DNA of 64,000 nucleotides, taken from positions 80,945 through 144,944 of the forward strand of contig JAFXUI010000001.1 in the NCBI GenBank assembly GCA_017535105.1, read 5' to 3'. Origin of the DNA: Alphaproteobacteria bacterium (GTDB taxonomy: Bacteria > Pseudomonadota > Alphaproteobacteria > Rs-D84). This document shows, piece after piece, positions 14,145 to 64,000 of this stretch. The notes under the pieces were generated by a model. The model was given only the letters and a program-made list of their open reading frames with translations, was not told the DNA's origin and searched no databases. The first letter of the stretch is position 1, and each line of letters begins with the position of its first letter. The position numbers were made by a program, and so were the translations under genes.

Positions 14145-14149
14145 TAAAA

Positions 14150-18359: not shown

Positions 18360-18367
18360 TCCTAGGA
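18360..18367. promoter_or_regulatory. Palindromic motif TCCTAGGA (CCYAGGAA half-site family) upstream of paralog 1
   Basis: Perfect 8-nt palindrome about 78 bp upstream of the minus-strand HTH gene start. Confidence 0.3.
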
Positions 18368-18541
18368 AATATTAGAACAAATAAAAATGATGATATGTTT
18401 TTATAAAAATACATAAAATATATTAGGAAAAATTGTCAATTTATAATAGATATTTATGTGCTGTATGTACCTGTTTTCCAAGTTTTTTTAATATAACGAT
18501 TCCTTTTTTAGAAACCCATTACATAAAAATGGGATAACAAA

Positions 18542-18565
18542 AATTCCCAGGAATTAAAATATAAT
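18542..18565 (+). promoter_or_regulatory. Operator-like palindrome AATTCCcaGGAATT abutting -10 TATAAT (18560-18565) of paralog 2
   Basis: 6-nt perfect arms with 2-nt centre, immediately upstream of TATAAT and 32 nt before AAGGAG-ATG of gene 18597. Confidence 0.4.
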
Positions 18566-18596
18566 GGACCGCGGTCATACAAAAAAGGAGATTAAA

Positions 18597-18824
18597 ATGA
18601 CTCATCAAGAGATCTGGCAAGCCATTGATAATTTCGCTTTTCAGCAAAAGATGTCTTGTTCTGGATTAGCAAAATTTGCAGGTTTAGATGCGACAACATT
18701 TAACAAAAGCAAACGTTGGTCTAAATATGGACAACCGCGGTGGCCGTCCACAGGCAGTATTGCCAAAATATTAAACTCTACGGGGAAAACAATAAGCGAT
18801 TTTATAAAATGTATTTGTGACTGA
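18597..18824 (+). CDS. Small HTH DNA-binding protein, paralog 2 of 18028..18282 (divergently oriented)
   Basis: 75 aa from ATG 18597 (AAGGAG 6 nt upstream): MTHQEIWQAIDNFAFQQKMSCSGLAKFAGLDATTFNKSKRWSKYGQPRWPSTGSIAKIL...; about 75% identical to paralog 1. Confidence 0.7.
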   Translation: MTHQEIWQAIDNFAFQQKMSCSGLAKFAGLDATTFNKSKRWSKYGQPRWPSTGSIAKILNSTGKTISDFIKCICD

Positions 18825-18868
18825 TATATTTTTATTTACAACAATATTTATGTGTATAAGATAAGAAT

Positions 18869-19627
18869 ATGTCTACATTAAAATCAAAAATACTTTTATT
18901 GAAAGAACTATTGGCACTGAAGGAAGTTGTTGATAAGGGTAGTATCCAAACCGCCGCTGGTGAAAACGGCATTAAAAATTCTAATCTATCCACTTTGATT
19001 AAAAATTTGGAAGATAGATTTAATACTAAACTTATCAACCGTGGTGTCGGTGGCAGTCAACCGACAAATTCAACCCAGATGATATACAACGATATTTGTG
19101 CCATAGAAGAAATACTTAACAAAATCACAGAAAACTTTGTTGATATGGACTCTTTGTCTGGGTCTGTTTCTGTCTGGACAGAAGAGGGCTTAATCGGCAG
19201 TTTTATTCTTAAAGATTTGTCAGAGTTTTATGCGAAATATCCAAAAATTCGTCTTGAATTGTTGATGAAGCAAGAACCCGATATTTCCACAATGGATATT
19301 TTGATTATCAAATCAAAAATTCACCCAAATATTCATGGGCATATTTTGTTCAAGTTCAAGACATCGCTGAAATTCTATGCAAGTAAAAAATACCTTAATG
19401 AACGCGGCGTTCCGAAAAACATAAACGATTTATTGGAAAATCACGATTTGTGTATGTCAAGTCGCTATATGAATTTACCGGAATACAAGGGGTTGATGAA
19501 ACGGGCAAAGCACCTGAATACCACATCAGATTCACTGGCGTTGATATACCGACTTGTTAATGATGGTGATGGTATAACGTTTTCCCATCGTGGTTTGAAG
19601 AATGCAGTAAAGAACTTGTGTGTTTAG
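18869..19627 (+). CDS. LysR-family transcriptional regulator, apparently frameshifted (C-terminal about 45 aa continue in another frame to 19770)
   Basis: N-terminal HTH LKELLALKEVVDKGSIQTAAGENGIKNSNLSTLIKNLEDRFNTKLINR; LysR substrate-binding domain; downstream frame encodes ...ELVCLEDLDFNFETEIQCICRTEIAESPKVQAFVNFFIDF, a typical LysR C-terminus. Confidence 0.65.
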   Translation: MSTLKSKILLLKELLALKEVVDKGSIQTAAGENGIKNSNLSTLIKNLEDRFNTKLINRGVGGSQPTNSTQMIYNDICAIEEILNKITENFVDMDSLSGSVSVWTEEGLIGSFILKDLSEFYAKYPKIRLELLMKQEPDISTMDILIIKSKIHPNIHGHILFKFKTSLKFYASKKYLNERGVPKNINDLLENHDLCMSSRYMNLPEYKGLMKRAKHLNTTSDSLALIYRLVNDGDGITFSHRGLKNAVKNLCV

Positions 19628-20341: not shown

Positions 20342-20372
20342 AAAAGTGGTGAAAATCGCCACTTTTATTTTT
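20342..20372 (+). terminator. Rho-independent terminator after NT5C gene
   Basis: AAAAGTGGTGAAAATCGCCACTTTTATTTTTAG. Confidence 0.6.
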
Positions 20373-20373
20373 A

Positions 20374-20390
20374 GGGTGGAGAGTGGATTT
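20374..20390. repeat. Duplicate of tRNA-fMet 3'-end segment (13-nt exact match GGAGAGTGGATTT to 20562-20574); att-like scar
   Basis: GGGTGGAGAGTGGATTT versus tRNA region TGGTTGCGGAGAGTGGATTT; a chance 13-mer match in 64 kb is expected about 0.002 times. Confidence 0.5.
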
Positions 20391-20524
20391 CCCTCGGCAT
20401 AAATGCCTGCGGGCAAATTTGTAGTTGCTTGAACTTCGCTTGCGCTTGTTCTCGCATACAAATTTTGAACCGGCAACTGCGTTGCGGGTCGCAAACCACG
20501 TCCAACAACAAATTAAATAAAAAA

Positions 20525-20554: not shown

Positions 20555-20631
<77 letters not shown>

Positions 20632-20672: not shown

Positions 20673-20706
20673 ATGAAATGTGGAAAATATGTCCGTGCTT
20701 TTCGGT

Positions 20707-20746
20707 TGTCATCCCCGCGAAGGCGGGGATCCAGTGCCCCGCAGGG
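20707..20746 (+). repeat. Palindromic interspersed repeat, copy D
   Basis: tgtcatccccgcgaaggcggggatccagtgccccgcaggg. Confidence 0.7.
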
Positions 20747-47854: not shown

Positions 47855-47876
47855 GCCGGCATTTACCGGCTTTTTT
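47855..47876 (+). terminator. Bidirectional terminator (CCGGCATTTACCGG family)
   Basis: AAAAGCCGGCATTTACCGGCTTTTTTATT. Confidence 0.7.
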
Positions 47877-49650
47877 ATTGTTTTTTTAACAGTGATTGTA
47901 CGGCGACCGGAAAATCATTACTGCGGGCAAGGTATGCGCCCGATATCAATAAATCAGCTCCAGCTTCCCAACAACGTTGCGCTGTTTTTTCGTTTATTCC
48001 GCCGTCCACAGAAATTGTGAATTTTAATCCATATTTTTTACGTGTCGCCGCCAAGACAGAAATTTTATGTAAGCATGCCGGCATAAATTCTTGACCCGTC
48101 GCACCGGGTTCAACGGCCATTACCATCACTTCATCTAAATCACGCAAAATAGGTTTCAATATAGTTGGTGATGTATCTGGATTTAACGCAACACCCGCGC
48201 GCCGCCCAGATGCTTTGATTGTGCGTATCGCGCTTTTTACACCTGATGTGTTTGTTGAAACAATTACCGTATCGGCACCCGCCGCAATTGCGTCTGCCGC
48301 CCATGCGTTCGGACTTTCGGTCATTAAATGTACGTGCAGATGGGCGGTTGTTCGTGCGCGAATTGCGCGCAGTTGTTCAATACTGCCCGTGATTTTATTT
48401 ACATATAATCCATCCATTATATCAACGTGCAACATTGATATACCCGCCGCATCGAAAGTCGTGTATGTGGTTGCATCGTTCATGTTAAAGCACATCGTGC
48501 TTGGCAAAATCGGAACAAATATATGACGTTTTTTGGGCTTCTTATGAAACAATTTTAATATGCCGTCCATGCGATGTGAAATGCGTTCATTGCGTGCGAT
48601 AATTTTTGCCCGCGCATCGGCAGTTTGATTCCATATATGTTCACTTAAAGATTGGACAATCGCATCAACGTGTGCGCTTTCGGTTGGTACACCAAATGAA
48701 CTTGATATAAAGTCAACAACCCCATCGGCATCTGATGCGCCGCCCGTCACGATAATTTTTGTTGGTTGATGTTTTTCGATTGTCTGGGCTGCTGCGTATT
48801 TAATGTCTTCGATAATATTTGTCATATATGGCACGACAATATCATTTATATCGGCACGTGAAAAATCATATGCAACATCGGCGGGGGCAAAACGGTCGGT
48901 TTCTTTTGGTAACATGGTGAACACGGCACGTTTAATACGGTCGGCATCTATAAACGGTACATCAAACTTTTCAGATATGGCCGTTGTTATATTTGTGCCA
49001 CCATTTTTTGTTTTATAGTGCCAAAGGGGGCCACGGTCTGACCAAATGGACGCGGTTGTGAACATCGCGCCCAAATCAATAAACATTATTGTTTCGTGTG
49101 GCTTATGAAATGCAGAGTTTAATACAAATTGTGAATCATAAAAACCATTTGGCTGGATAAGCGCGTGACGCAAGAATGTATTTATTTCCTCAACACTGGC
49201 ACGGTTATAAAATATTGCGCCGAATACAGAAATCAATTGATTATCAATATGTCCAATTGGGGTCAACATATTATGCATATGTGGCGATGTATATTGTAAT
49301 GGAATAATATGCATCGCAAAGTGGCCGTCGGGTGTTGTGATTTGTGCCGCCTGGTGTCGGACATCGCCAGCGGTTATTTTGTGTTCGTTCGACCATATTG
49401 TGTTTTTCGCAACAATGCTGAATACAGATTCACCAAAATTGCCAGTGATATATGCGTTATCAAAATGGCGACCGATTTGTGATTCCAGTTCATCAACCAC
49501 AGATTTTATCGCATAAACAGTATCTGTTGATTCGGCGACAAACATTGCCGACTTTACAATTCGCGCATTACGAACGCGGTGCGCAATACCATGTACCGCC
49601 GATGATCCAATATCCAAACACAAAAAAGCAGAATCAATAAGATGGTTCAT
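47875..49650 (-). CDS. ftsA: FtsA-like actin-family ATPase (about 370 aa) continuing in frame into a complete ribulose-phosphate 3-epimerase domain (about 220 aa); apparent FtsA-Rpe fusion
   Basis: N-part LCLDIGSSAVHGIA (phosphate 1), IMFIDLGAMFTTASIW (phosphate 2), IIVTGGASDADGV (adenosine); basic ILKLFHKKPKKRH tail; C-part ILPS...MLHVDIMDG...VMAVEPGATGQEF...ISVDGGIN = Rpe signatures; positioned after ftsQ where ftsA then ftsZ are expected. Confidence 0.7.
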   Translation of the reverse strand: MNHLIDSAFLCLDIGSSAVHGIAHRVRNARIVKSAMFVAESTDTVYAIKSVVDELESQIGRHFDNAYITGNFGESVFSIVAKNTIWSNEHKITAGDVRHQAAQITTPDGHFAMHIIPLQYTSPHMHNMLTPIGHIDNQLISVFGAIFYNRASVEEINTFLRHALIQPNGFYDSQFVLNSAFHKPHETIMFIDLGAMFTTASIWSDRGPLWHYKTKNGGTNITTAISEKFDVPFIDADRIKRAVFTMLPKETDRFAPADVAYDFSRADINDIVVPYMTNIIEDIKYAAAQTIEKHQPTKIIVTGGASDADGVVDFISSSFGVPTESAHVDAIVQSLSEHIWNQTADARAKIIARNERISHRMDGILKLFHKKPKKRHIFVPILPSTMCFNMNDATTYTTFDAAGISMLHVDIMDGLYVNKITGSIEQLRAIRARTTAHLHVHLMTESPNAWAADAIAAGADTVIVSTNTSGVKSAIRTIKASGRRAGVALNPDTSPTILKPILRDLDEVMVMAVEPGATGQEFMPACLHKISVLAATRKKYGLKFTISVDGGINEKTAQRCWEAGADLLISGAYLARSNDFPVAVQSLLKKQ

Positions 49651-52523: not shown

Positions 52524-53783
52524 ATGAATATGTTTTCCAAAATCGAAAAGAAAATTGCATTTCGTTATTTGGCGATGAAAAAGCGCGGATTTGGTTCCGT
52601 TGTTTCGTGGGTGTCGTTGATTGGTATAACATTGGGGGTTGCGACACTTATTGTTGTTATGTCGGTTATGGGTGGATTTCATGACACATTACTTTCACGT
52701 ATTGTCGGAATGAACGGGCATGTTGTTGTTTATCATCAAGATGGCGCGATAAAAGATTATGATTTCTTGATCGAAAAAATAGCCCAGAACAAAATTGTGA
52801 ATTCATACACAACGTCAATCGTTCCGATTGCCGAAGGCCAGGTTATGGCGACCGCAAATGGTAATAATACCGGCGCGATGATACGTGGTATTCGTATGTC
52901 TGATTTGGCCCAGAAAGCATCAACTGGGACACGTATGTATGGAAAACCACTGGACCAGATTGCAGACGGCGAATTGGTTGCGGGCGCATCACTGACACGT
53001 GCGTTAAACGTCACAATGGGTGATAATATATCGTTGGTTTCGGCAAATGGCGCGACCCCAACACCATTTGGAACAATGCCACGTATTATGGCATATCCGG
53101 TTATGACATCGTTTTTTATGGGAATGTATGAGTATGATTCTGGATATATCTTTATGCCGCTTGAAACCGCGCAAAAATATCTGAACATTGGTGATGCGGT
53201 GACACATATTGATTTATTCCTTAAAAATCCCGAAGATACAAGTCGCGTTTTGGACGCGTTGGTGCGTTTATTACCGGACGGTTTTATTGTGCGCGATTGG
53301 CGTGATTTAAATCGTGGGTTTGTTGGTGCGTTACAAGTTGAATCAAACGTAATGTTTTTGATTCTTTTGCTTATCGTGATTGTTGCGGCATTTAATATCG
53401 TGTCAAGTTTGGTTATGTTGGTAAAAGATAAAAATAAAGACATCGCGGTGTTACGCACATTTGGTGTTTCGCGTAAATCAATGATGAAGATATTTATTTT
53501 GTCGGGAACCAGTATTGGTGTAATTGGTGCGTTCTTTGGAATGATATTTGGAATCATTGTCGCAATTTATATCGAACCAATAAGACAATTTTTCCAATGG
53601 GCAACTGGGCGCGATTTGTTCCCAGCGGAATTATATTATTTGTCGGAATTGCCGTCCAAGTTGGTGGCAAGCCAGGTTATCGGCATTGTTGTCTTGGCAA
53701 TTGCGTTGGCGTTTTTGGCAACATTGTACCCGGCGTGGAAGGCGGCAAACACAGATCCAGTCGAAGTATTGCGTAATGAATAG
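52524..53783 (+). CDS. lolE: Lipoprotein-releasing system permease LolC/LolE (FtsX family)
   Basis: 419 aa; MacB/FtsX topology; followed by lolD. Confidence 0.85.
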   Translation: MNMFSKIEKKIAFRYLAMKKRGFGSVVSWVSLIGITLGVATLIVVMSVMGGFHDTLLSRIVGMNGHVVVYHQDGAIKDYDFLIEKIAQNKIVNSYTTSIVPIAEGQVMATANGNNTGAMIRGIRMSDLAQKASTGTRMYGKPLDQIADGELVAGASLTRALNVTMGDNISLVSANGATPTPFGTMPRIMAYPVMTSFFMGMYEYDSGYIFMPLETAQKYLNIGDAVTHIDLFLKNPEDTSRVLDALVRLLPDGFIVRDWRDLNRGFVGALQVESNVMFLILLLIVIVAAFNIVSSLVMLVKDKNKDIAVLRTFGVSRKSMMKIFILSGTSIGVIGAFFGMIFGIIVAIYIEPIRQFFQWATGRDLFPAELYYLSELPSKLVASQVIGIVVLAIALAFLATLYPAWKAANTDPVEVLRNE

Positions 53784-53791
53784 GGGTTAAA

Positions 53792-54502
53792 ATGGCAAGT
53801 ATTCTGAATTCTTTATCAAGGGTTAAACGCGGTGACGTGGTTATGTCGGTGCGCGATATTAAAAAGACCTTTATTGAAGGAGGACAACCATTACACATCT
53901 TACGCGGGGGCGGGTTTGATTTGCACCGTGGGGAAATTATCGCATTGGTTGGGCCATCGGGTTCTGGTAAATCGACATTATTACAATGTGTTGGGTTGCT
54001 GGATAAACCAACATCGGGCAGTATTATTATTTCCGGTACCCCGGTTCAGAAAATGAGTGAAGATGCACGTACCATTGTTCGCCGTAAAAAGATTGGCTTT
54101 GTATATCAACGTCATAATTTATTATCAGATTTTACGGCGGTTGAAAATGTTGAATTGCCAATGTTGGCAAATGGTGTTGAACCCGATATCGCACATCGGC
54201 GTGCATTAAAGTTGTTGCGTGCGGCGGGTGTTGCACATCGTGCGGAACATGTTCCTGGTGAAATGTCTGGTGGTGAGCAACAGCGTACGGCGGTTGCGCG
54301 TGCCTTGGCGAACGAGCCAGAAATATTACTTGCGGACGAACCAACGGGCAGTCTGGACCCGGCGCATGCGACCGCGGTATTTGATCAATTACTTGCGTTG
54401 GTGCGTAAGAATAATATGGCAATGTTGTTCGTTACACACGATATGGGATTGGCAACACGCGCCGACCGAAAAATTACCATTGCAAATGGTATAGTAAAAT
54501 AG
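53792..54502 (+). CDS. lolD: Lipoprotein-releasing system ATP-binding protein LolD
   Basis: Walker A GPSGSGKSTLL, signature MSGGEQQRTAVARAL, Walker B LLADEPTGSLD. Confidence 0.9.
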   Translation: MASILNSLSRVKRGDVVMSVRDIKKTFIEGGQPLHILRGGGFDLHRGEIIALVGPSGSGKSTLLQCVGLLDKPTSGSIIISGTPVQKMSEDARTIVRRKKIGFVYQRHNLLSDFTAVENVELPMLANGVEPDIAHRRALKLLRAAGVAHRAEHVPGEMSGGEQQRTAVARALANEPEILLADEPTGSLDPAHATAVFDQLLALVRKNNMAMLFVTHDMGLATRADRKITIANGIVK

Positions 54503-54537
54503 TTACAATATATAAAAAGAGGACAGAGGAGAGAGAA

Positions 54538-55110
54538 ATGAAAAAGCAAACAAAATCAAAAAAAGCCAGTTCAACCAAGATGGCGAAAGCAATGACGCAC
54601 GCGGTTGTTGTGCACAGTCGTCGCCAGCGTATATATGCGTTTATTGCATTGGCTGGTCTGTTTTTATGTGGTTTGTTTGTTGGTATGGACGTTAAATCGC
54701 GTTCATGTAATATGCCACAAAATGCCGAACCGATTTCCGTAGACGCAATGAATGTTAATGGACCCGAAGATGTTTGTGGCGAAGTCGAACGTTTGTTGGC
54801 GCGTCATTTGCCGGCGGCATCGGATAATGTCGAAGATCGTATTGAACGTGCCAAGATTTATACCAGTATGGCTGAACGCGGTTGCGTTGAAAATATGGAT
54901 ACATATGTTGAATTAGCAGCCCAAGAATTAGATATTGCGCGCGCAATTGATGATGATAATTTTAATCGCCAAGAAACAATCGATATTGTGGAAACATATA
55001 AACGCTTGAATATGAAAGCGGCCGCACAAGAAATTTTCGAAAAGGCGAAAAAATTAACCGACCCAGCGATTGACTTTATTATCCAGGTTGAAAAAATTAT
55101 AAATGAATAA
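54538..55110 (+). CDS. Membrane-anchored hypothetical protein (190 aa)
   Basis: Basic N-terminus, TM IYAFIALAGLFLCGLFVGM, acidic C-domain. Confidence 0.5.
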   Translation: MKKQTKSKKASSTKMAKAMTHAVVVHSRRQRIYAFIALAGLFLCGLFVGMDVKSRSCNMPQNAEPISVDAMNVNGPEDVCGEVERLLARHLPAASDNVEDRIERAKIYTSMAERGCVENMDTYVELAAQELDIARAIDDDNFNRQETIDIVETYKRLNMKAAAQEIFEKAKKLTDPAIDFIIQVEKIINE

Positions 55111-55127
55111 ATAAAAAGGAAAGCAAA

Positions 55128-55823
55128 ATGAAATTGCGGATATTGCTTTTGTGTACATTTGCACTGATTGGAAATGCATTTGCAGACGACGGTGCAAAAA
55201 TTATGGAACGCAAAACGTGCGAGCAGATAAATGGTGAAATCGCATATTTGTCGGGTCTGGACAGTTTAAGTGCAGATGAACAAGCGCAATTGAAGCAATT
55301 GAATCAACAACAACGTTCCTATTGTACGACCAAGGGTGGTGGTCGTCGTGCAATTGCGCGTTCGATGCCATCGCAAGGTACCGCAGAATCAAACCAAATG
55401 ATAATGATAACATCGGACGTGCTGTCGGAATATATCGCGACCAAAAAATCAAATTGTGAAAAGTTGGGCGCGGAAATGGAAAAATTAGCATCTGATACGA
55501 CCAAGGCATATTTGGTTACGGAAATGCACCGCTATTATGATGTTGATTGTGTTGACCACAAAGATGCGGCCGGCACGCCAGCGGCGGTTACAGAAACTGG
55601 CTCTGTGGCGGTGGCTGCCGCGGCGACACCAACCAAGACCGATGAAGAAATCGCGGCTGAATTTGACGCAAATTTGGCGGCGGGGCTTTGTGGTGACGGA
55701 TCAAAACCAAGTCGTTTTGGTTGCTGTGCGGGTGAAACCTTTAAAGATTTGGGTGATTTAGGATTTGCGTGCTGTCCACGTACGGGAAATGTATGCTATC
55801 CGCCAGTAACACCGATAATGTAG
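55128..55823 (+). CDS. Secreted Cys-containing protein of unknown function
   Basis: Signal peptide MKLRILLLCTFALIGNAFA; C-terminal GLCGDGSKPSRFGCCAGE...FACCPRTGNVCYPP. Confidence 0.55.
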   Translation: MKLRILLLCTFALIGNAFADDGAKIMERKTCEQINGEIAYLSGLDSLSADEQAQLKQLNQQQRSYCTTKGGGRRAIARSMPSQGTAESNQMIMITSDVLSEYIATKKSNCEKLGAEMEKLASDTTKAYLVTEMHRYYDVDCVDHKDAAGTPAAVTETGSVAVAAAATPTKTDEEIAAEFDANLAAGLCGDGSKPSRFGCCAGETFKDLGDLGFACCPRTGNVCYPPVTPIM

Positions 55824-55839
55824 TTGGTGGAATATTCAC

Positions 55840-55867
55840 TTGATTTTCATCTGAATTAAGATATAAT
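55840..55867 (+). promoter_or_regulatory. Promoter for tRNA-Gly/Tyr: TTGATT-16 nt-TATAAT
   Basis: -35 55840-55845, -10 55862-55867; tRNA-Gly 5' end at 55888. Confidence 0.55.
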
Positions 55868-55887
55868 CGCCTTGCTTACGAATTATC

Positions 55888-55962
55888 GCGGGCATAGTAC
55901 AAGGGCTAGTACGCAAGCCTTCCAAGCTTGATGTGCGGGTTCGAGTCCCGCTGCCCGCACCA
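55888..55962 (+). tRNA. tRNA-Gly (anticodon TCC)
   Basis: GCGGGCATAGTACAAGGGCTAGTACGCAAGCCTTCCAAGCTTGATGTGCGGGTTCGAGTCCCGCTGCCCGCACCA; all stems perfect. Confidence 0.9.
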
Positions 55963-56046
55963 AGTGAATAGCTGGGTGCCAGTGAATTGGGTAACCTTAC
56001 GCGGCGGACATCAATTCGTTGCTAATAACGCAACTCATTGTGTCCT

Positions 56047-56076
56047 TGGACGTGCGGTTTCCCGCTACCCGCACCA
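56047..56076 (+). repeat. Degenerate duplicate of the tRNA-Gly 3' half (pseudo-tRNA fragment / att-like scar)
   Basis: gacgtgcggtttcccgctacccgcaccaaagt versus tRNA-Gly 3' end gatgtgcgggttcgagtcccgctgcccgcaccaagt. Confidence 0.5.
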
Positions 56077-56090
56077 AAGTTGATAGTTCT

Positions 56091-56177
56091 GGGCGTGCGC
56101 CGGAGTTGGAGAGCCGGGGCAGACTGTAAATCTGTTGGCTTAAGCCTGAGGTGGTTCGAATCCACCCACTCCCACCA
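56091..56177 (+). tRNA. tRNA-Tyr (anticodon GTA, long variable arm)
   Basis: GGGCGTGCGCCGGAGTTGGAGAGCCGGGGCAGACTGTAAATCTGTTGGCTTAAGCCTGAGGTGGTTCGAATCCACCCACTCCCACCA; one acceptor mismatch (C4:T69). Confidence 0.75.
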
Positions 56178-56185
56178 AAAGATAC

Positions 56186-56214
56186 ACCGCACCATAAAGG
56201 TGCGGTTTTTCTTT
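56186..56214 (+). terminator. Terminator after tRNA-Tyr
   Basis: ACACCGCACCATAAAGGTGCGGTTTTTCTTT. Confidence 0.65.
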
Positions 56215-56220
56215 GGATTT

Positions 56221-56335
56221 TATACTGTTCGGGTGGTTTGAAAATAGCATGTCTATAAAACACTAAAAATTACCAATCTTCGAACAGTCAAGATTTTCAA
56301 GGGGTTGCCCCGTTCGAACCCACCGAGGCGGTTTC
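56221..56335. repeat. Two degenerate fragments resembling the tRNA-Tyr T-arm/3' region (one direct CGGGTGGTTTGAAAAT, one inverted CCGTTCGAACCCACCGAGG)
   Basis: Compare tRNA-Tyr CCTGAGGTGGTTCGAATCCACC; located at the boundary of the low-GC segment. Confidence 0.35.
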
Positions 56336-56400
56336 ATTTTATAATTTATATTTTCTGTGGTATAATTTAACATATAAGAATAGAACTTAAAGGATAAAGA

Positions 56401-56649
56401 ATGAAAAAACAAAAAATACAAAATAATTCTCTTAAAGAAGTAGAAGAAGAGTATGCACAAGAACGGAAGCAAAATATATGGTCTGATATAGATGTTGTAA
56501 ATAATACGTTATCAGATATCGACTTAAATGTTGGAAATTTTTATAATGATACAGATGAAAAATTAGAAGAACTTAAAAAATTATTAAAATCTATATATGG
56601 ATTATTGTGGATTGGTTTGATATTGCTCGGTTTTATGGCATTTAAATAA
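56401..56649 (+). CDS. Small hypothetical protein (82 aa, very low GC, C-terminal TM)
   Basis: TGgTATAAT extended -10 at 56358-56366, AAGGA RBS, ORF MKKQKIQNNSLKEVEEEYAQ...LLWIGLILLGFMAFK. Confidence 0.4.
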   Translation: MKKQKIQNNSLKEVEEEYAQERKQNIWSDIDVVNNTLSDIDLNVGNFYNDTDEKLEELKKLLKSIYGLLWIGLILLGFMAFK

Positions 56650-56798
56650 TTATAAAAATTTTAGGTTATATGTTTTAAACATGTACTACAGTTGTTTAAC
56701 CATTTATCTTTAAATTCTTTTATCTGTTGCATTAAATCGGTAAATTCTTGTTTGTTTTCTGCTCGATTAGTGCAAGCTGATTCCCACCAAAAACACAA

Positions 56799-56830
56799 AC
56801 ACCCACGATATGTGGGTGTTTTTGTTTTTG
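56799..56830 (-). terminator. Bidirectional terminator ending the SemiSWEET operon
   Basis: ACACCCACGATATGTGGGTGTTTTTGTTTTT. Confidence 0.55.
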
Positions 56831-56842
56831 GCTATGTATAAA

Positions 56843-57124
56843 TTATCTTTTCTTTCGTTTCTTGTTTTTCAAGTTTATTATCATACACAATATTATCACA
56901 TTGAATACTAAACTGATGCTGTTGAACAATATTATTTGGAATGAATGTAAATATATGCCGTAAGTGAACCAGCATATTAAGCCCAAGCAATATATGATAT
57001 ACATATACAATGAAAGGCCAGATACATTTTTGGTAACAATGGATTTTATTATTTGTGGTAAAAACGCCAAGGTTGTGAAAATGCCGGCCAAATAACCAAT
57101 GATTTCAAATATAACATTGTTCAT
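56843..57124 (-). CDS. SemiSWEET / PQ-loop family small sugar transporter (3-TM)
   Basis: 93 aa; LAFLPQIIKS PQ-loop motif, three hydrophobic helices; AAAGGGG RBS. Confidence 0.6.
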   Translation of the reverse strand: MNNVIFEIIGYLAGIFTTLAFLPQIIKSIVTKNVSGLSLYMYIIYCLGLICWFTYGIYLHSFQIILFNSISLVFNVIILCMIINLKNKKRKKR

Positions 57125-57135
57125 ACAAAACCCCT

Positions 57136-57447
57136 TTATTTCTTTTTCTTGTCGGGTAATTCGGGATAGATGGCGGGGAATAGGGCCGATAAAAATTCGC
57201 GGTTTTCAATATCGGGAATCATTATCATTGGACTTCCGCCCGGATATGGTATTTCCATTTGTGCGTTTGGAATCATTTTGCGCGCGGTGGCGGTTGGCTT
57301 TATCAGAAAACGATTGTCATAGATTCCACCAATAACACGTCCGCGATAGTAAATGATAAATTCGCCCATCATCGCACGATAGTCAATGTCCGGAATGTTG
57401 GACAATTGTTCCAAAACAAAATCTAAAAAATCTTTACTTGATGCCAT
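57136..57447 (-). CDS. TfoX N-terminal domain-like protein
   Basis: 103 aa; FLDFVLEQLSNIPDIDYRAMMGEFIIYYRGRVIGGIYDNRFLIK resembles TfoX_N (Sxy N-domain) pattern. Confidence 0.4.
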   Translation of the reverse strand: MASSKDFLDFVLEQLSNIPDIDYRAMMGEFIIYYRGRVIGGIYDNRFLIKPTATARKMIPNAQMEIPYPGGSPMIMIPDIENREFLSALFPAIYPELPDKKKK

Positions 57448-57452
57448 GGTGT

Positions 57453-57830
57453 TTACTTTGAACGGATTATCACATGCTTAAACCATTGTTCTTGGAACTT
57501 GGTTTGTTCTTCGATTTCTTTATCGGTTATATTTTTTTCATTATCTGGAACGACAACCAATTTGTCATCGTTATCGTCTGTGCGGTGTATTATCGCGCAT
57601 ACGCGACCGGTAAAAGTTTCCAGTGGTGATTTGGGTCCCAAAACATATGCATCTAATTCTTCGCCATCGCCAGATATGGTGTTTGGTATAAATCCATAAT
57701 TTACCAGATATGTGAAACCGTGCTTTGGATGTTTTGTGCCCAATGGTCGATCCATTTTAACAGTGACGGTTTTACCAAGAAAATCGATTGATTGTGTTTG
57801 TTTTGTCATTTTGAACCCCTGTTTATTCAA
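57453..57830 (-). CDS. Inorganic pyrophosphatase-like protein, N- and C-terminally truncated relative to family I PPases
   Basis: YLVNYGFIPNTISGDGEELDAYVLGPKSP...VCAIIHRTDDNDDKLVVVP aligns with E. coli Ppa [24 protein letters not shown]...DEAGEDAKLVAVP; lacks N-terminal E20/K29/R43 region. Confidence 0.55.
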   Translation of the reverse strand: MNKQGFKMTKQTQSIDFLGKTVTVKMDRPLGTKHPKHGFTYLVNYGFIPNTISGDGEELDAYVLGPKSPLETFTGRVCAIIHRTDDNDDKLVVVPDNEKNITDKEIEEQTKFQEQWFKHVIIRSK

Positions 57831-57868
57831 TTATAGTCGTTATTTTGGCGAATAAACAACTAAAAAAA

Positions 57869-57893
57869 CACCGGCATTTACCGGTGTTTTTTT
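57869..57893 (+). terminator. Bidirectional terminator (CCGGCATTTACCGG family)
   Basis: AAAAAAACACCGGCATTTACCGGTGTTTTTTTAT. Confidence 0.7.
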
Positions 57894-57927
57894 ATATTCT
57901 TTTGTTCGTTTTTTCGCAACAAATGAA

Positions 57928-58500
57928 TTACAGCCATTCGTCCGCCCATGTTTTCAATTCGTCTGCGGTTACATCAACTGGGAAACGCGCGCCATTTGGA
58001 ATTGATACATTCGGTGCTAATGGACGCATGTTTTCAGCCGCTTCGGCGGTTGATGGAGTGCTGCCGGACGTAGCAAATGGAATAATTGTTTTTCCAGTAA
58101 AGTCATAAGATGTTAAGAATGTATCAACAATTGATGGTTCGCGACCCCACCAAATTGGAAAACCCAAGAATATGGTGTCGTATTTCGATATGTCGTCAAT
58201 GGTGTTTGCGATAACTGGGCGTGAATCTTTATTGCCCATTTCAATCGAAGAACGGCTTTTGTCATTACGCCAGTTCAAGTCGTCATCGGTATAAAGTATT
58301 TCGGGTTGAATTTCGAATAAATCAGCGCCTGTTGCGGTTGCCAAACGTTCGGCAACCCCACGTGTGTTGCCAGTTGCACTGAAATACGCGACAAGTACAT
58401 TATTATTTGTCATTGTTTTTTCCTTTGCGTTAATGTGTGAAATTGCGAAAAGACCAGCAATAACAATAATCGCGGCGGCGATATAGATAAGTTTTTTCAT
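57928..58500 (-). CDS. Flavodoxin-family protein with N-terminal signal/anchor (exported flavodoxin-like)
   Basis: MKKLIYIAAAIIVIAGLFAISHINA then VLVAYFSATGNTRGVAE flavodoxin FMN-binding loop. Confidence 0.7.
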   Translation of the reverse strand: MKKLIYIAAAIIVIAGLFAISHINAKEKTMTNNNVLVAYFSATGNTRGVAERLATATGADLFEIQPEILYTDDDLNWRNDKSRSSIEMGNKDSRPVIANTIDDISKYDTIFLGFPIWWGREPSIVDTFLTSYDFTGKTIIPFATSGSTPSTAEAAENMRPLAPNVSIPNGARFPVDVTADELKTWADEWL

Positions 58501-58590
58501 GGGGGCTCCTTTTTGTTTTTACCTGTGTTTTATCGTATTGAATTTGATATGTTTTTGCAATAATATAATTGGCATACAAAGGAGTCAAAA

Positions 58591-58842
58591 ATGGCGAATA
58601 TATGTCAAAGTTGCGCAATGCCAATGGAAGACGAAAAACTGTACGGAACAAATGCGGACGGGTCGCAAAACCCAGATTATTGTATCTATTGCTATAAAAA
58701 TGGCGAATTTTTACAGAAAGCGACAATGGAAGAATATATCGAAATGATGGTTCCGTTTGCAGCCCAAGCAGGCATGACGGGCGACCAAATGCGCGAATAT
58801 TGTGCGGCGGTTTATCCAACACTGAAACGGTGGAAAAAATAG
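58591..58842 (+). CDS. Zinc-ribbon domain protein (83 aa)
   Basis: CQSCAMPM...CIYCYKNG two CxxC pairs. Confidence 0.5.
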   Translation: MANICQSCAMPMEDEKLYGTNADGSQNPDYCIYCYKNGEFLQKATMEEYIEMMVPFAAQAGMTGDQMREYCAAVYPTLKRWKK

Positions 58843-58958
58843 GGCGTGTATAATATTTTTTCAGATTGATATTTGGGGCTTTAATGCTTGAAAATCGGGA
58901 AAATATCGACTAACATACAGTACCACAAATAATACAAAAAAATGATTTTGGGGGAATA

Positions 58959-59813
58959 ATGCAAAAAAGTCCACGTGTGTCTGTTTTGACGCCAATTTAT
59001 AATACGAATCCGTCGCATTTATGCGAAATGGTTGAATCTATATTGAATCAGACGTTTACGGATTTTGAATTTTTGATTCTGAATGATTCACCAGACAATA
59101 AAGAGATTGAAAAAATTGTTTTGGGGTACGCGAAAAAAGATAAACGCGTTAAATATTTCAAAAATGACAAAAATATGGGTATTACACCATCGCGTAATAA
59201 ATTGCTTAAAATGGCGCGTGGGGAATATATCGCGATTTTTGATCATGATGATATTTCGGTGCCGAACCGTTTGAAGTTAGAGGTAGATTTTCTTGATAAA
59301 AACCCAAGTATTGGTGTTGTATCGGGCTTTATGCAGAATTTTGGTGCAAAAAACACAATTCGTACGACACCCGAATATGATGTAGATATAAAAATTGCAT
59401 TAACCGATAATTGTGTGTTTTGGCATACGGCGGCAATGATACGTAAATCGGTCTTGGTTGATAATGATATTGAATATGAAGAATATTACAGCCCGTGTGA
59501 AGATTATCGGTTGTTTTCACGTTTGATGAATGTAACGCTTTTTCATGCGTTGCAGACTGTGTTGGTTAATTATCGTATGTCTGAAAATCAAACGTCTGTG
59601 CGTCAAAAGGCGCGTATGAACATTATGCATCATACAATTCAGATGGATATTATTAATCGGTTTCCGGCATATCGCAAGGCGTGGTGTGATTCAGATGCAT
59701 ATACAACACGATTCAGATTACGTTTATTCGGAAAAATTCCATTGTTGAAAATTAAACACAATTGGGTTTTGTTGTTTGAATTTATCCCATTGTTCAAAAT
59801 TAAGTGGAAATAG
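58959..59813 (+). CDS. Glycosyltransferase family 2
   Basis: VSVLTPIYNTNPSHLCEMVESILNQTFTDFEFLILNDSPDN... GT-A DxD-type; GGGGGA RBS. Confidence 0.85.
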   Translation: MQKSPRVSVLTPIYNTNPSHLCEMVESILNQTFTDFEFLILNDSPDNKEIEKIVLGYAKKDKRVKYFKNDKNMGITPSRNKLLKMARGEYIAIFDHDDISVPNRLKLEVDFLDKNPSIGVVSGFMQNFGAKNTIRTTPEYDVDIKIALTDNCVFWHTAAMIRKSVLVDNDIEYEEYYSPCEDYRLFSRLMNVTLFHALQTVLVNYRMSENQTSVRQKARMNIMHHTIQMDIINRFPAYRKAWCDSDAYTTRFRLRLFGKIPLLKIKHNWVLLFEFIPLFKIKWK

Positions 59814-59815
59814 TA

Positions 59816-61060
59816 ATGACGGGTTTGACATATAACACATTAAAGTTATTGTGCGGGCTTATTCCAATAAGTGGATATCGTCGTCTTGCGCGCAGAAAAA
59901 TTCAATCGCGATATATAGCGCCCGAATATGCAAAATGGATTGATGATTTACATAATAACAAATCAAATTTTGTCCCGATTACCGATAAACCATTTAAAAG
60001 AAAATCAGATACGCCAAAAGTATTTGCATATTATTTAACACAATATCATGCGGTGCCAGAAAATGATGCTGCACACGGCAAGGGGTTCACAGAATGGACA
60101 AATGTTGCCGCGGCAACACCGCAATTTGTCGGACACTATCAACCGAAGATACCGTATGATTTGGGATTCTATAATTTGCTGGATATTAATGTTATGCGAC
60201 GCCAGGCCGAATTGGCAAAAATGTATGGCATTTATGGTTGGTGTTTTTATTTTTACTGGTTTTCTGGGAAACAAGTATTGGAAAAACCATTGTATAATTT
60301 TTTGGAATCAGATATAGATATGCATTTCCATTTGTGTTGGGCTAATGAGAATTGGTCAAAGTTGTGGGACGGTGGCAACAAAGAAGTTGTTTTGGAACAA
60401 AAGTTATCAGATGGTGATGCGGAAAAATTCTTTGCAGATATTTTGCCATTTATTCAAGACAAACGTTATGAAAAAATTGATAACAAACCAATATTGATGA
60501 TTTATCGTCCATCGTTGTTTGATTGTGATAAAATAAAATCGTTTTTGGATACGTTGGACAAGTTGGCGCGTGAAAATGGGTTTGATGGTTTTTGGTTTAT
60601 GGCAAGTAATGCGTTCAATTTTAATACCCCCATCGAATATGGTTTTCGTGGTATTATCGAATTCCCACCACATGGATTTGGTAAAAATGTAGATTTTGTA
60701 AAGTGTTTGTGTTTCCCGACAACAACTACATTTTCTGTGGTAAGCCTTTCTCGTTTTATCGGGGACAGGTTGTATATAACAAAACCAAATTACACAGTGT
60801 TTAAGACGGTGTTTCCATCGTGGGACAACACACCGCGCAAGGCTTATTCAAATGGCAAATGTTTCAATATATCTGGGCAAGAATATAAACAATGGTTGTC
60901 TGGGGTTATAAAATGGACCCGTGAAAACAACCCAGAAAATCAACAATACATTTATATCAATGCGTGGAACGAATGGGGCGAAGGCGCAATATTGGAACCA
61001 ACAACACGTTATGGATACAAAAATTTGGAATTAACCAAACAATGTTTAGAAGAAGAATAA
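59816..61060 (+). CDS. WbsX-family polysaccharide biosynthesis glycosyl hydrolase/transferase (Glyco_tran_WbsX)
   Basis: VFAYYLTQYHAVPENDAAHGKGFTEWTNV... family pattern; ORF track starts at GTG 59804. Confidence 0.65.
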   Translation: MTGLTYNTLKLLCGLIPISGYRRLARRKIQSRYIAPEYAKWIDDLHNNKSNFVPITDKPFKRKSDTPKVFAYYLTQYHAVPENDAAHGKGFTEWTNVAAATPQFVGHYQPKIPYDLGFYNLLDINVMRRQAELAKMYGIYGWCFYFYWFSGKQVLEKPLYNFLESDIDMHFHLCWANENWSKLWDGGNKEVVLEQKLSDGDAEKFFADILPFIQDKRYEKIDNKPILMIYRPSLFDCDKIKSFLDTLDKLARENGFDGFWFMASNAFNFNTPIEYGFRGIIEFPPHGFGKNVDFVKCLCFPTTTTFSVVSLSRFIGDRLYITKPNYTVFKTVFPSWDNTPRKAYSNGKCFNISGQEYKQWLSGVIKWTRENNPENQQYIYINAWNEWGEGAILEPTTRYGYKNLELTKQCLEEE

Positions 61061-61081
61061 TTAAAATTAGGCGGAGACAAT

Positions 61082-62176
61082 ATGATAAAGTTTTTAGATC
61101 TTGAAAAAATAAATAATCGTTTTCGTGACGAAATCGACGGGCGTATTGCAAATGTTTTAGATCGTGGGTGGTATTTACTGGGTGGCGAAAATGATAATTT
61201 TTGCGATCATTTTGCAGAATATGTTGGCACGAAATATTGTTTGGGTGTTGCGAATGGTCTGGACGCATTAACATTGATTATTAAAGCATATGATTTTGCG
61301 CCAGGGGACGAAATAATCGTTCCGGCAAATACATATATTGCGACAATTTTATCGATTTCTGAAAATGGTTTAACACCGGTGTTGGTTGAACCAGATATAA
61401 ACACATATAATATCGACCCAAAAAAGATAGAAGAAAAAATTACAGAACGCACGCGCGCAATAATGGTGGTGCATTTATATGGTCGCGCGGTTGAAATGAA
61501 AGAAATTTGGGATTTGGCAAAAAAATATAATCTGAAAGTGTTTGAAGATTGCGCCCAAGCGCATGGTGCAATTTATGATGGTCATCGGGTTGGCAATTTA
61601 AGTGATGCGGCCGCGTTTTCGTTTTATCCTGGTAAAAACCTTGGGGCGTTCGGTGATGCGGGTGCGATAACGACAAATGATGAAGATATTTATAAAAAAG
61701 TGAAAACATTGGCGAACTATGGTTCGGATAAAAAGTATCATTTTCAATATCGCGGTAAAAATAGCCGACTTGATGAAATACACGCAGCTGTTTTAGATGT
61801 AAAGTTGAAATATTTGGACGCCGACAATGAACGTCGTCGGGAAATTGCGCGGTACTATATTGAACATATAACAAATCCAAAAATCGTATTGCCCACGCTT
61901 AATGGTATGGACGAAAAATCGTGTGTTTGGCATGTGTTTCCGGTGCGTACTGAAAACCGCAACGCGTTTCAACAATATTTGACCGATAATGAAATTCAGA
62001 CAATCATTCATTATCCAATTGCGCCGCATAAGCAACCAGCGTATGCGGAATGGAATAATCTGTCATATCCAATTACCGAAGAAATTCACGATACGATAAT
62101 TTCGTTACCTATATCACCAGTAATGACTGATGAAGAGGTAAAAAAAGTAGTGGAGGTTGTAAATGCGTTCAATTAA
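61082..62176 (+). CDS. DegT/DnrJ/EryC1/StrS-family PLP-dependent sugar aminotransferase
   Basis: 364 aa; conserved fold motifs ([23 protein letters not shown]). Confidence 0.9.
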
Positions 62177-63701
62177 CGAGATGTATTTTTCGCACCGTAT
62201 CAAAAACAATCAGCGTGCTTTCTTGCGTATGGAACGCGCGGTTGCGCGTGAACGCGATTTGGCGAAACGTTGCGTGTTGGCAAAACAGGCGGCTGATTTT
62301 GCCGTTATGCATACGACCGATATTTTTTCATCACCGATTGTCGAAGAACCATTTATAACATTGGCGCAAAAAATAAAAATTCCATTATCAAAAAAATACA
62401 CACCAAAAACCACATTGCATGTTATGACGGAATCTTATACCAGCGGTGGTCATACGCGTTGTGTGGAACGTTGGGCGCAACAAATGACAAAATATAAACA
62501 TTCGTGTGTGATTTTGCGCCAACATGCCGACATTCCAAAACAACTTGGGCAAATTATGCGTGATTCGGGTGGTGAATTGATAGTGTTTAATCCGAATGAA
62601 ACAATTGTGCAAAGCGCGATGCGTTTGCGGGAATTGGCATCAAAATATGAATAGATTGTTTTGCATATTCATATGAATGACCCAATCGCGTTGGTTGCAT
62701 TTGGCACAACCGAATTTACACGACCGGTAATATTCTTTAATCATGCTGATCACGCATTTTGGGTGGGTGTTTCAATATCGGACTGGGTTGCTGATTTGAA
62801 TTACAATCGTAATCAACTGACATTAAAAAGTCGTGGTACCAATCGGGCAAGTGTTTTGGGTATTCCGGCGGACAACACGAAATTGTTAAAAATCAGTAAA
62901 ACGGATGCGCGGAAAAAATTGGGATTGCCGTTGGATAAAAAAATTATATTTTCATCGGGTCAGCCGACCAAATATGATCCGCTTGGGCACCCTGATTTCT
63001 CAGACTTGATTCAAGATGTAATAAAGCAAGATAAAAACATTTTGTTCTATATCGCGGGCGCAAATAAAAATGCGATATTTTGGCCAAAAATGTTAAGGAA
63101 ATATCCAAACAATTTGTTTTTGACGGGTCGACTTGATTATGCAACCGAATATCCGATGTATTTGGCGGCATCTGATTTGGTCATAGACAGTTTTCCGGTT
63201 GGTGGTGAAACGGCGGTCATAGATGCTGTAAAGGCGGGGAAACCGGTGTTGACATCGAATCATTTATTCCAGGAAGATTTTTTGACCGAATCCATTGGTT
63301 CTTGTCATGATTACACAGAGTTATTAGAAAAAACTCATAAAATATCAAACGACAGGGCGTTTGCAAAAAAAGTATATCAAGATATATATTCGCGATTCAT
63401 TGATGCCACAGATACAAAAAAATGGACTGATCGGTGCAATAAAATTATCAGCAAACTGCCAAAACAACACAAGGTTTATAAAGTCAAATCTTGTGCCCCA
63501 ACAAAGGATATAACGGTTTATTCTTGGTCGACAACACGTTGGACGGAACCAATTGATAAAGTGTTTTCTTTATCCAGATTTCGTAAATGGCTGATATCGG
63601 TTCATTTAAGCCGACACAGCAGTTTAATACGTATTTGTGGAATATATCTTTTAAACAAACGGAGAAAAAATGAATACAACACCAAAAATTTTACAATTTG
63701 A
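62163..63701 (+). pseudogene. GT-B (GT4-like) glycosyltransferase interrupted by a single in-frame TAG at 62652-62654 (pseudogene or error)
   Basis: ORFs 62163..62654 and 62661..63701 are in the same frame separated by ...SKYE-TAG-IV-LHIHMNDP...; N-part and C-part (DSFPVGGETAVIDAVKAGKPVL) together form one GT-B enzyme. Confidence 0.55.
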
Positions 63702-64000
63702 TATTATGGGTGATGAACGCGGTTGGTTGTGTGTAGCAAATGGTGCAAAGCAGATACCATTTGATATAAAACGCGTATATTGGATATATGGAACTGAACC
63801 CGGGGTTGCACGTGGTAAACATGCGCATCATAAATTGTCGCAAGTTTTGGTTTGTGTTTCTGGGTCTGTTGATATTTATTGTGAATGGGGTGATAAATCA
63901 GAAACATTCACTTTATCAAATGCAAATACAGGTCTGTTGTTAAATGGTTTGTGTTGGCACGAAATGCGTAATTTTTCACCAGACGCTGTTTTGTTGGTAA
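63670..64000 (+). CDS. Cupin-type sugar 3,4-ketoisomerase (FdtA/WxcM-like), 5' part; runs off window
   Basis: GGAG RBS then MNTTPKILQFDIMGDERGWLCVANGAKQIPFDIKRVYWIYG...HAHHKL; typical FdtA start. Confidence 0.6.
   Translation, partial: MNTTPKILQFDIMGDERGWLCVANGAKQIPFDIKRVYWIYGTEPGVARGKHAHHKLSQVLVCVSGSVDIYCEWGDKSETFTLSNANTGLLLNGLCWHEMRNFSPDAVLLV

Follow-up and report, generated by a model that had tools for sequence, protein, structure and literature searches.

A probable flexible gene slot behind the tRNA-Gly/tRNA-Tyr pair of Candidatus Enterousia and a hairpin cassette that accounts for its tRNA-Gly fragment

The 64,000-nt stretch of contig JAFXUI010000001.1 analysed here, called the window throughout, carries at 55,888–58,850 a tRNA-Gly/tRNA-Tyr gene pair, several tRNA-like fragments and a run of small genes (the islet). 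A sequence-only reading had seen in this arrangement the outcome of repeated integration and decay at a tRNA hotspot. We favor a different reading, to which we give a probability of roughly 65%: the DNA 3' of the tRNA pair is a genus-wide flexible slot holding intact, lineage-typical genes, and the pseudo-tRNA-Gly is an arm of a 114-nt hairpin cassette. Candidatus Enterousia, the genus concerned, comprises uncultured gut and rumen Alphaproteobacteria of the order Rs-D84, whose genomes stay below about 1 Mb and lack standard sugar transporters (PMC12306168).

Gene content 3' of the tRNA pair

The comparison set consisted of 80 loci, retrieved with the LolE protein, from different species of Candidatus Enterousia and relatives (referred to by L numbers); the Gly-Tyr pair is visible in about 47 of the 80 Enterousia loci. 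Window positions 53,001–64,000 were a 100% match to a 166-kb metagenome scaffold across the 11 kb compared. Throughout the ~47 species the tRNA-Gly(UCC)/tRNA-Tyr(GUA) pair is kept, followed by variable content and then by conserved core genes. What lies 3' of tRNA-Tyr is different in nearly each of these species and also between strains, as in L004. Within the window's clade the slot is filled as follows.

L012: slot 3' of tRNA-Tyr empty
L116: only SemiSWEET and the pyrophosphatase (PPase)-like gene
L014: TfoX, flavodoxin and Zn-ribbon
L007: polysaccharide cluster
Window: all gene types of L116, L014 and L007

The same genes recur in distant species 3' of the same tRNA pair, and remain there even where the pair has been relocated: L093 has PPase-like and TfoX genes, L145 flavodoxin and PPase-like genes, and L090-92 a PPase-like gene with a Zn-ribbon fusion together with GT2. 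Their order is not fixed, as TfoX stands between SemiSWEET and the PPase-like gene in the window and not in L116, and the flavodoxin gene has TfoX as its neighbour in L014, the PPase-like gene in L145. In L038 and L040 a large serine recombinase and DUF2924 directly follow tRNA-Tyr, while in L092 a 2.4-kb two-gene unit is enclosed by repeats that comprise the tRNA-Tyr 3' end and its terminator. The proposal of a recombination or insertion hotspot at a tRNA is thus borne out by the variation among species and strains, the serine recombinases and the tRNA-3'-end repeats. Its other half, decay and unrelated cargo, is not: the genes are intact, and subsets of them recur at the same slot in L014, L093, L116, L145 and L090-92. 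Content does differ among relatives, yet the same gene subsets return to the locus with host-like base composition, the GC of the islet genes tracking that of each host genome.

Turnover would proceed by gain, loss and shuffling of small genes, one or two at once; near-identical tRNA genes, recurring bidirectional terminators and short repeated modules are its likely substrates, and recombinase-borne elements and larger blocks would occasionally join the slot. In this genome the accessory DNA between tRNA-Tyr and the core measures ~14.5 kb and not 2.5 kb, from 56,178 to ~70.6 kb (window-equivalent), and the core genes AMP-ligase, Xth and AddB restart only at ~71.2 kb window-equivalent (L087). 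One locus, L006 (2537-2824), was set aside: it is identical to the window until 56681, continues into GC-rich unrelated sequence and was judged probably an assembly chimera.

The pseudo-tRNA-Gly as the arm of a hairpin cassette

The tRNA pair and the sequence between its two genes resolve into the following features.

55840..55867 (+): promoter-like site TTGATT-16-TATAAT upstream of the tRNA pair (consensus scan 10/12, pattern match only)
55888..55962 (+): tRNA-Gly, anticodon UCC (ARAGORN; Rfam tRNA 70.7 bits)
55963..56076 (+): family-A hairpin cassette, 114 nt, absent in L004 and present in nine other Enterousia species
55989-55996 (+): left arm of the window cassette, including GGGTAACC
56006-56045 (+): central hairpin of the window cassette, with apical stem-loop GTTGC-TAATAAC-GCAAC
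56044..56076 (+): degenerate copy of the tRNA-Gly 3' half, forming the 3' arm of the cassette (local alignment)
56056-56063 (+): right arm of the window cassette, GGTTTCCC
56077..56090 (+): native 14-nt Gly-Tyr spacer aagttgatagttct, the entire spacer in strain L004
56091..56177 (+): tRNA-Tyr, anticodon GUA (ARAGORN; Rfam tRNA 38.5 bits)

Both tRNA genes, first read from the sequence, were upheld by ARAGORN and by Rfam, and the pair looks co-transcribed. The degenerate tRNA-Gly 3'-half copy reported between them is also real: placed at 56044-56076 and bearing a 4-nt T-loop deletion, it aligns with a score of 31, above every one of 2000 shuffles (null mean 13.7, maximum 24). At E <= 10 the tRNA covariance model matched only the two real tRNAs and none of the tRNA-like fragments; by sequence alignment, on the other hand, the Gly 3' half and one Tyr T-arm piece are significant.

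As a private decay product, however, the pseudo-tRNA-Gly does not hold, since it is part of a conserved, structured cassette family. In strain L004, which is 98% identical upstream, the 114 nt at 55963-56076 are cleanly missing, and the cassette is flanked by a ~20-nt direct repeat; in this genome, repeat bounding of the integrase type (attL/attR) was found for this 114-nt Gly cassette only. The Gly-Tyr spacer, 128 nt long in the window, is only 5–7 nt and without any element in 18 Enterousia species, while nine further species carry a 113-115-nt Gly cassette. These are scattered over at least six lineages of the LolE/LolD tree, and the cassettes of two species are ~80-89% identical in nucleotide sequence even where the proteins encoded beside them share only 30-40% identity.

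The window cassette folds into a rod with a minimum free energy (MFE) of -42.7 kcal/mol (z = -2.86). RNAalifold gave 26 consensus pairs, 99.6% paired and with four compensatory pairs, against 35-49% paired in slid-partner controls. A metagenome scan, for which the apical core served as the pattern, returned 24 further family-A copies, found directly after tRNA-Gly(UCC), a variant tRNA-Gly(UCC), tRNA-Gly(CCC), tRNA-Leu(UAG) and tRNA-Glu(CUC); two copies (L120, L121) have no tRNA gene within ~400 nt. Each copy that adjoins a tRNA gene terminates in the 3' end of that very tRNA (the last ~20-30 nt, from the T-loop onward), and the changes in the variant tRNA-Gly are mirrored in its cassette. Over this wider set, counted on ungapped anchored copies as MAFFT mis-gapped the Leu subgroup, all 9/9 lower-stem pairs show compensatory changes, GGGTA(T/A)CC co-varies with GG(A/T)TTCCC in the stem, and the outer left arm tracks the tRNA-specific right arm.

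We infer that the cassette is most likely a non-autonomous insertion module with the T-loop or 3' end of the tRNA as its point of entry, and that its insertion would leave a working tRNA and a displaced copy. Between two tRNAs it would presumably be transcribed, giving a stable rod-like spacer RNA, because the tRNAs lie 5-7 nt apart when the site is empty and no terminator-like hairpin stands between them here.

The same spacing and the same missing terminator would suit a rival explanation that we regard as rather doubtful, in which the cassettes are primarily functional RNAs. The tRNA 3'-end copy would then close a helix, the RNA could serve, for example, as a processing signal, a decoy or a protein-binding RNA, and spread between species would take place by homologous recombination through the flanking tRNA genes. 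The conserved structure, with its compensatory changes and a left arm that follows the tRNA-specific right arm, fits this explanation, as do the high cassette identity beside diverged neighbouring proteins and the cloverleaf-like four-way junction of a second cassette family (z = -3.0; see below). On the tRNA-sense strand of the family-A copies G-U pairs number 27 vs 7 A-C mismatches, many of the G-U pairs coming, however, from one related subgroup. Against a role as RNA, the antisense fold is as stable or more so in 21/26 copies (mean -36.6 vs -34.4 kcal/mol for sense), and the ~18 species without any spacer element imply that the cassette is dispensable. Nor does any Rfam family match: scans with Rfam 15 at the gathering threshold and at E <= 10 gave only the real tRNAs and terminator-driven noise. 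No tmRNA was found by ARAGORN.

Searches for relatives of the cassette elsewhere were negative within their scope. A structural regular expression run over 1.87 Mb of loci revealed no diverged cassettes beyond the exact-core copies, and when IMG/VR was scanned for exact copies of the family-A core, of the end of the Gly cassette and of the 3' end of tRNA-Tyr, none of the three had a match. A viral origin by way of a family-T motif was considered and rejected, both of its two IMG/VR matches lying in GC-rich coding DNA as expected of chance; 17 IMG/VR matches to a 16-mer are probably chance as well. The literature searched for tRNA-linked hairpin elements yielded nothing specific.

A second family of tRNA-linked cassettes

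Cassettes of a second family, family T, share this architecture, measure 110-170 nt and follow tRNA-Tyr and its terminator in 17 species and in strain L004; at its end each repeats the tRNA-Tyr 3' end exactly. Tandem copies also occur, with arrays in L013, L061 and L092. The window has one member, at a different tRNA gene.

~20372-20505 (-): family-T cassette, 134 nt, after initiator tRNA-Met, between two terminators

This copy terminates in an imperfect tRNA-fMet 3'-end copy (aaatccactctcc), the initiator tRNA-Met itself lying at 20555-20631, and takes the form of a cloverleaf-like four-way junction when folded (z = -3.0, MFE -44.7 kcal/mol). In the family the junction is closed by pairing of the 5' arm with the tRNA-derived strand, and the hairpins co-vary. 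Modules are combined as a mosaic (A+B, A+C, T1+T4), and the same modules recur at different tRNAs.

Tentatively, and at somewhat less than even odds, we propose that families A and T are an undescribed class of tRNA-anchored modules of small-genome gut Alphaproteobacteria, be they mobile elements, RNAs or marks of gene-swap boundaries. Such a class may comprise structurally constrained units of ~100-170 nt at six or more tRNA genes, each with a copy of its own tRNA's 3' end paired with the 5' arm. The modules might be mobile elements of a non-autonomous kind, whose insertion in the T-loop restores the tRNA, or else structured RNAs carried along on tRNA transcripts; as a further possibility, they mark the borders at which single genes swap into and out of the slot.

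Two side observations concern repeats. At 5872-6055 of L004 a 167-bp insert after tRNA-Tyr, missing from the window, has an 18-bp tRNA-Tyr 3'-end repeat on each side. Separately, a palindromic repeat consisting of gtcattcccgcgaaggcgggaatc and then tattgccccgcaggg (ATTCCC-N8-GGGAAT plus TGCCCCGCAGG) has motifs that recur inside the tRNA-linked cassettes, and is present in the window in four copies.

11660-11712 (+), 11830-11882 (+), 12246-12290 (-), 20706-20745 (+): palindromic repeat copies
11889-12233 (-): small, AT-rich GIY-YIG nuclease gene (PF01541 50 bits; third-codon-position GC 0.219)

The nuclease gene stands between two copies of the palindromic repeat in inverted orientation, an arrangement that suggests a mobile unit.

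The conserved block behind tRNA-Tyr

Beyond tRNA-Tyr the sequence-only reading had noted two T-arm fragments, one direct and one inverted. Both fall in a block with the following parts and downstream neighbour.

56178..56334 (+): conserved post-tRNA-Tyr block, 157 nt
56186-56206 (+): terminator inside the block (sequence scan)
56279-56284: TTCGAA inside the block
56338..56366 (+): promoter-like site of the 82-amino-acid (aa) open reading frame (ORF), its -10 extended by TG (TGGTATAAT; pattern scan)

One fragment stands, the T-loop-like GTTCGAACCCACC at 56312-56324, which agrees with the tRNA-Tyr T-arm in 12/13 positions (P ~0.003) and is the sole significant T-arm match. The "inverted" match is the palindromic TTCGAA site read on the other strand, and the piece at 56229-56245 is not significant. 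None of these pieces can be called private debris, as they sit inside the 157-nt block, which is 75-85% identical at the same position in at least 11 other species and recurs in L092.

The end of the block coincides with several points of divergence. L004 diverges wholly immediately past 56334 and has a different minus-strand gene there, and several species diverge immediately beyond the block's second TTCGAA, the site at which L010 has a ~1-kb insert with part of the block repeated on its far side. In other species the last motif of the block reads as a perfect GTTCGAATCCACC, with unrelated sequence beyond it, unlike a decayed attR. These divergence points make the block end a boundary of variable DNA, yet not one produced by private decay. 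Boxes of the form TGnTATAAT, comparable to that of the window, follow the block in other species.

Genes and composition of the islet

Downstream of the block the islet comprises six genes and two hairpins.

56401..56649 (+): 82-aa ORFan with a C-terminal hydrophobic helix (ORF and composition)
56797..56821 (bidirectional): terminator-like hairpin between the 82-aa ORF and SemiSWEET
56843..57124 (-): SemiSWEET (PQ-loop) transporter, 93 aa (NF037968 90.1 bits, cut-off 80; PF04193 39.9 bits, cut-off 22)
57136..57447 (-): TfoX_N-like protein, 103 aa (PF04993 28.3 bits, profile positions 1-56 of 91)
57453..57809 (-): short pyrophosphatase-fold protein, 118 aa (PF00719 48.2 bits, profile positions 30-121 of 153)
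57861..57894 (bidirectional): terminator-like hairpin parting the flavodoxin gene from the three-gene unit, also in L014 and L116
57928..58500 (-): Flavodoxin_4 protein, 190 aa (PF12682 188 bits; NF005501 201.9 bits, cut-off 198)
58591..58842 (+): Zn_ribbon_2 protein, 83 aa (PF12674 103.9 bits, cut-off 22.5)

Profile scores confirm the SemiSWEET, flavodoxin, Zn-ribbon and pyrophosphatase domains that had been named from the translations; for the TfoX_N-like call the PF04993 match lies just under the Pfam gathering score (28.3 bits vs 30.1). The PPase-like, TfoX-like and SemiSWEET genes form the minus-strand unit that had been described as an operon, with measured spacers of 5 and 11 nt and a bidirectional terminator at either end. 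The islet genes are intact, carry promoter- and terminator-like signals and have homologues 58-87% identical in sister species. The TfoX-like protein is 77% identical in L014, at the same locus, and 63% in L093, where it adjoins the PPase-like gene; at the same locus the flavodoxin is 73% identical in L014 and 58% in L145, and the Zn-ribbon protein 87% in L014. SemiSWEET homologues 65-80% identical occur in related genomes, including at non-tRNA loci, some of them beside housekeeping genes. The N-terminal segment of the flavodoxin is hydrophobic, and export of the protein is putative. The 82-aa ORF had no family match in profile scans and one related cluster only (83% identity) among 1.84 billion representatives. 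Phage or defence functions were not apparent among the islet genes, PHROGs giving weak matches only and PADLOC none.

The low GC attributed to the whole ~2.5 kb is more restricted. Against a mean GC of 0.413 in the rest of the window, the only outlier, defined as falling below about the 1st percentile of 400-nt windows from that remainder, is 56335-57124 (0.256-0.291); TfoX (0.413), flavodoxin (0.429) and Zn-ribbon (0.433) are at the mean, and the PPase-like gene has 0.381, all inside the range of the genome. The 56401 gene is indeed below 30% GC, as had been stated: with GC 0.245 and third-codon-position GC 0.169 (z = -4.3), the 82-aa ORF is the sole compositionally anomalous gene, and its segment alone looks recently acquired. 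In SemiSWEET the third-codon-position GC is normal (0.415), the low GC being confined to codon positions 1 and 2 and thus a consequence of amino-acid content; its homologues at non-tRNA loci are equally low in GC. Mildly low GC (0.35-0.38) extends past 58850 through the polysaccharide genes to the window end, and further AT-rich stretches lie at window 13351-15150 and 18151-19200 (400-nt GC down to 0.22), so that low GC is not peculiar to the tRNA locus.

The short pyrophosphatase-fold protein

The PPase-like gene starts at the ATG at 57809 and not at the TTG at 57830, a choice favored by a -10 box at 57835-57830 and an AGGGG ribosome-binding site read from the sequence. The sequence-only reading had held its product to be a truncated pyrophosphatase, lacking N-terminal catalytic residues and probably inactive. 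Truncation is not supported: the protein belongs to a large family of 6684 homologues with a typical length of ~117 aa, the best 120 spanning 107-147 aa, its predicted model is confident and compact (pLDDT 89.7), and an Asp/Lys metal-binding cluster is invariant. All of the top 50 PDB matches of the model are family I PPases (query-normalised TM-scores 0.65-0.68, probability 1.0 for many of them), and the protein, at 38.5 bits, falls short of the NCBIfam equivalog cut-off of 200. Activity is putative.

The active site of E. coli PPase is built from E20, K29, E31, R43, Y51, Y55, D65, D67, D70, D97, D102, K104, Y141 and K142. Equivalents of Y51, Y55, D65, D70, D97, D102 and K104 are kept in the short protein and D67 is replaced by E, while E20, K29, E31, Y141 and K142 have no aligned counterpart. 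The N-terminal catalytic residues E20, K29 and E31 are thus missing from the alignment, as claimed; the verdict "probably inactive" is not supported. Invariant in the short family are D20, R21, Y34, Y38, D48, E50, D53, D79, D81, D82 and K83, and D20-R21 may be the counterpart of E. coli D42-R43. Literature on short PPases adjoining TfoX yielded nothing specific.

At least two loci of otherwise unrelated context also have a short PPase-fold gene behind a tRNA gene, 18 nt after tRNA-Arg in L095 (5908-6357) and 466 nt after tRNA-Arg in L144 (3459-4336), hinting at a recurring link of such genes with tRNA genes.

The remainder of the accessory stretch and other features of the window

The accessory stretch that holds the islet continues into a polysaccharide cluster.

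58959..64000 (+): surface-polysaccharide gene cluster, first part; 11.6 kb in all

In the window the cluster encodes GT2, WbsX, DegT and GT1, and past the window end FdtA, an acetyltransferase, a thiamine pyrophosphate (TPP) enzyme, a pyruvyl transferase and GT92. Among the loci compared, GT2/WbsX is common to the window and L007 only. Near its distal part L002, another contig of this species, has at 9845-11180 a 234-aa gene and DsbA where L001/L087 encode the 311-aa acetyltransferase and the TPP enzyme, either by strain variation or by misassembly. At the far accessory edge, adjoining the core genes, L087 17915-18367 (window-equivalent ~70.6-71.0 kb) encodes a 150-aa protein with an Mtd_N domain, the N-terminal domain of phage tail proteins of the major tropism determinant type; a 141-aa gene of L014 was considered as its counterpart and is not homologous. 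Elsewhere in the window, at 47875-49650 (-), a 591-aa gene beside ftsQ carries precomputed Pfam matches to FtsA/PilM-like and ribulose-phosphate 3-epimerase domains, which if real would be an unusual fusion.

Weighing of the readings

Several points weigh against the reading that we favor. The relatives are mostly fragmented metagenome-assembled genomes, in which a gene missing within the 10-kb flank is not equivalent to a gene missing from the genome. No recombinase, transposase or integrase was found in the islet ORFs or among called genes out to the core, and a second copy of the tRNA-Tyr 3' end AATCCACCCACTCCCACCA was not found in 21 kb with up to three mismatches allowed. As for the cassette as an insertion module, it is low-copy (one in the 64-kb window, none elsewhere in the 1.87 Mb of loci); the duplicated segment varies from ~20 nt up to ~95 nt, L139 repeating the tRNA end plus 78 nt, and therefore no transposase making a fixed staggered cut fits. 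The invariance of the apical hairpin is in part an ascertainment artefact, because that core was the scan pattern, and recurrent loss through deletion between repeats, in place of gain, could explain why the cassettes are scattered.

A second rival, which we consider improbable and place below the functional-RNA explanation, is that successive integrase-mediated islands in tRNA-Gly and tRNA-Tyr have decayed, leaving att scars, leftover cargo and a dead pyrophosphatase. Recombinase-bearing elements do occupy the site in L038 and L040, but these are of the serine type only, and no tyrosine integrase is present at the site in ~47 species. The T-loop is the classic crossover place of tRNA-targeting integrases, and it is in the T-loop that identity begins here; tRNA-3'-end direct repeats surround both the Gly cassette and the L004 167-bp insert, and the tandem units of L092 each terminate in the tRNA-Tyr 3' end. 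The islet, however, has no att repeat on its far side, and its genes are intact, conserved and recurrent at the locus. Tandem arrays of decayed, integrase-less elements have been described for streptococcal integrative and conjugative elements. Fragments of tRNA genes left by integration are a recognised problem of annotation (PMC9897764), yet the length and boundaries of the cassette are constant across many species and four tRNAs, with compensatory stem changes, which is unlike random deletion remnants, and exact scans of IMG/VR place its core and ends on no viral contig.

Least likely of the explanations is a gene set ancestral to the genus that was differentially lost in shrinking genomes without any insertion, for although the same genes stand at the same slot in distant species with GC that matches each host, and genome reduction is a feature of Enterousia (PMC12306168), the genes stand in differing order beside differing neighbours (TfoX in the window vs L116, flavodoxin in L014 vs L145), the 82-aa ORF is an ORFan of extreme composition, the polysaccharide cluster is common to one other species only, and strains differ and recombinase elements occur at the site. 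A flexible slot with turnover of single genes thus remains the reading that we prefer.

Significance and comparison with known systems

On that reading, genomes of less than 1 Mb would still maintain a dedicated place for the trial of small accessory genes (a sugar transporter, redox proteins, a minimal pyrophosphatase-fold protein) and for a surface-polysaccharide cluster. The cassettes, if they are what they seem, would add a new type of tRNA-targeted element, or else of tRNA-linked RNA, and they carry a warning for annotation, as a "tRNA fragment" need not be debris. The short pyrophosphatase-fold family, with thousands of members, is an uncharacterised minimal version of a textbook enzyme. 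It shares with family I soluble inorganic pyrophosphatases the fold and the conserved Asp/Lys metal-binding cluster, found here in a protein of 118 aa, and differs from them in length (~117 aa vs ~175 aa).

The slot resembles tRNA-linked genomic islands in having variable accessory genes directly 3' of a tRNA, tRNA 3'-end repeats and a surface-polysaccharide cluster. It differs from them in that no integrase and no attR-type repeat bound the islet, composition is host-like, genes recur within the genus and turnover appears to be by single genes. To att scars and decayed tandem elements the cassettes are similar as short units bounded by repeats of the target's 3' end, including the arrays of L013, L061 and L092; here, however, unit length and boundaries are conserved across species and tRNAs, internal hairpins co-vary, and the genomes and viral contigs searched contained no cognate integrase or parent element.

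Bacterial miniature inverted-repeat transposable elements and palindromic repeats (REP/BIME, ERIC, Correia, Rickettsia palindromic elements, Neisseria intergenic mosaic elements) are likewise imperfect palindromes of ~100 nt with a rod fold and module mosaics, and are co-transcribed with neighbours, as the cassettes presumably are. The cassettes depart from these in being low-copy and strictly behind tRNA genes, and in having a right arm that copies the local tRNA 3' end as a long, variable duplication, where those elements have a short, fixed target-site duplication. Small RNAs derived from the spacers and trailers of tRNA operons are exemplified by the 3' external transcribed spacer of leuZ in E. 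coli. The cassettes may be like them as RNA freed between or after tRNAs by tRNA processing, but the spacer RNAs are neither mimics of tRNA 3' ends nor insertion polymorphisms across tRNA loci. Finally, as possible boundaries of gene swaps, the tRNA-linked modules bear a loose likeness to the recombination sites of integron cassettes.

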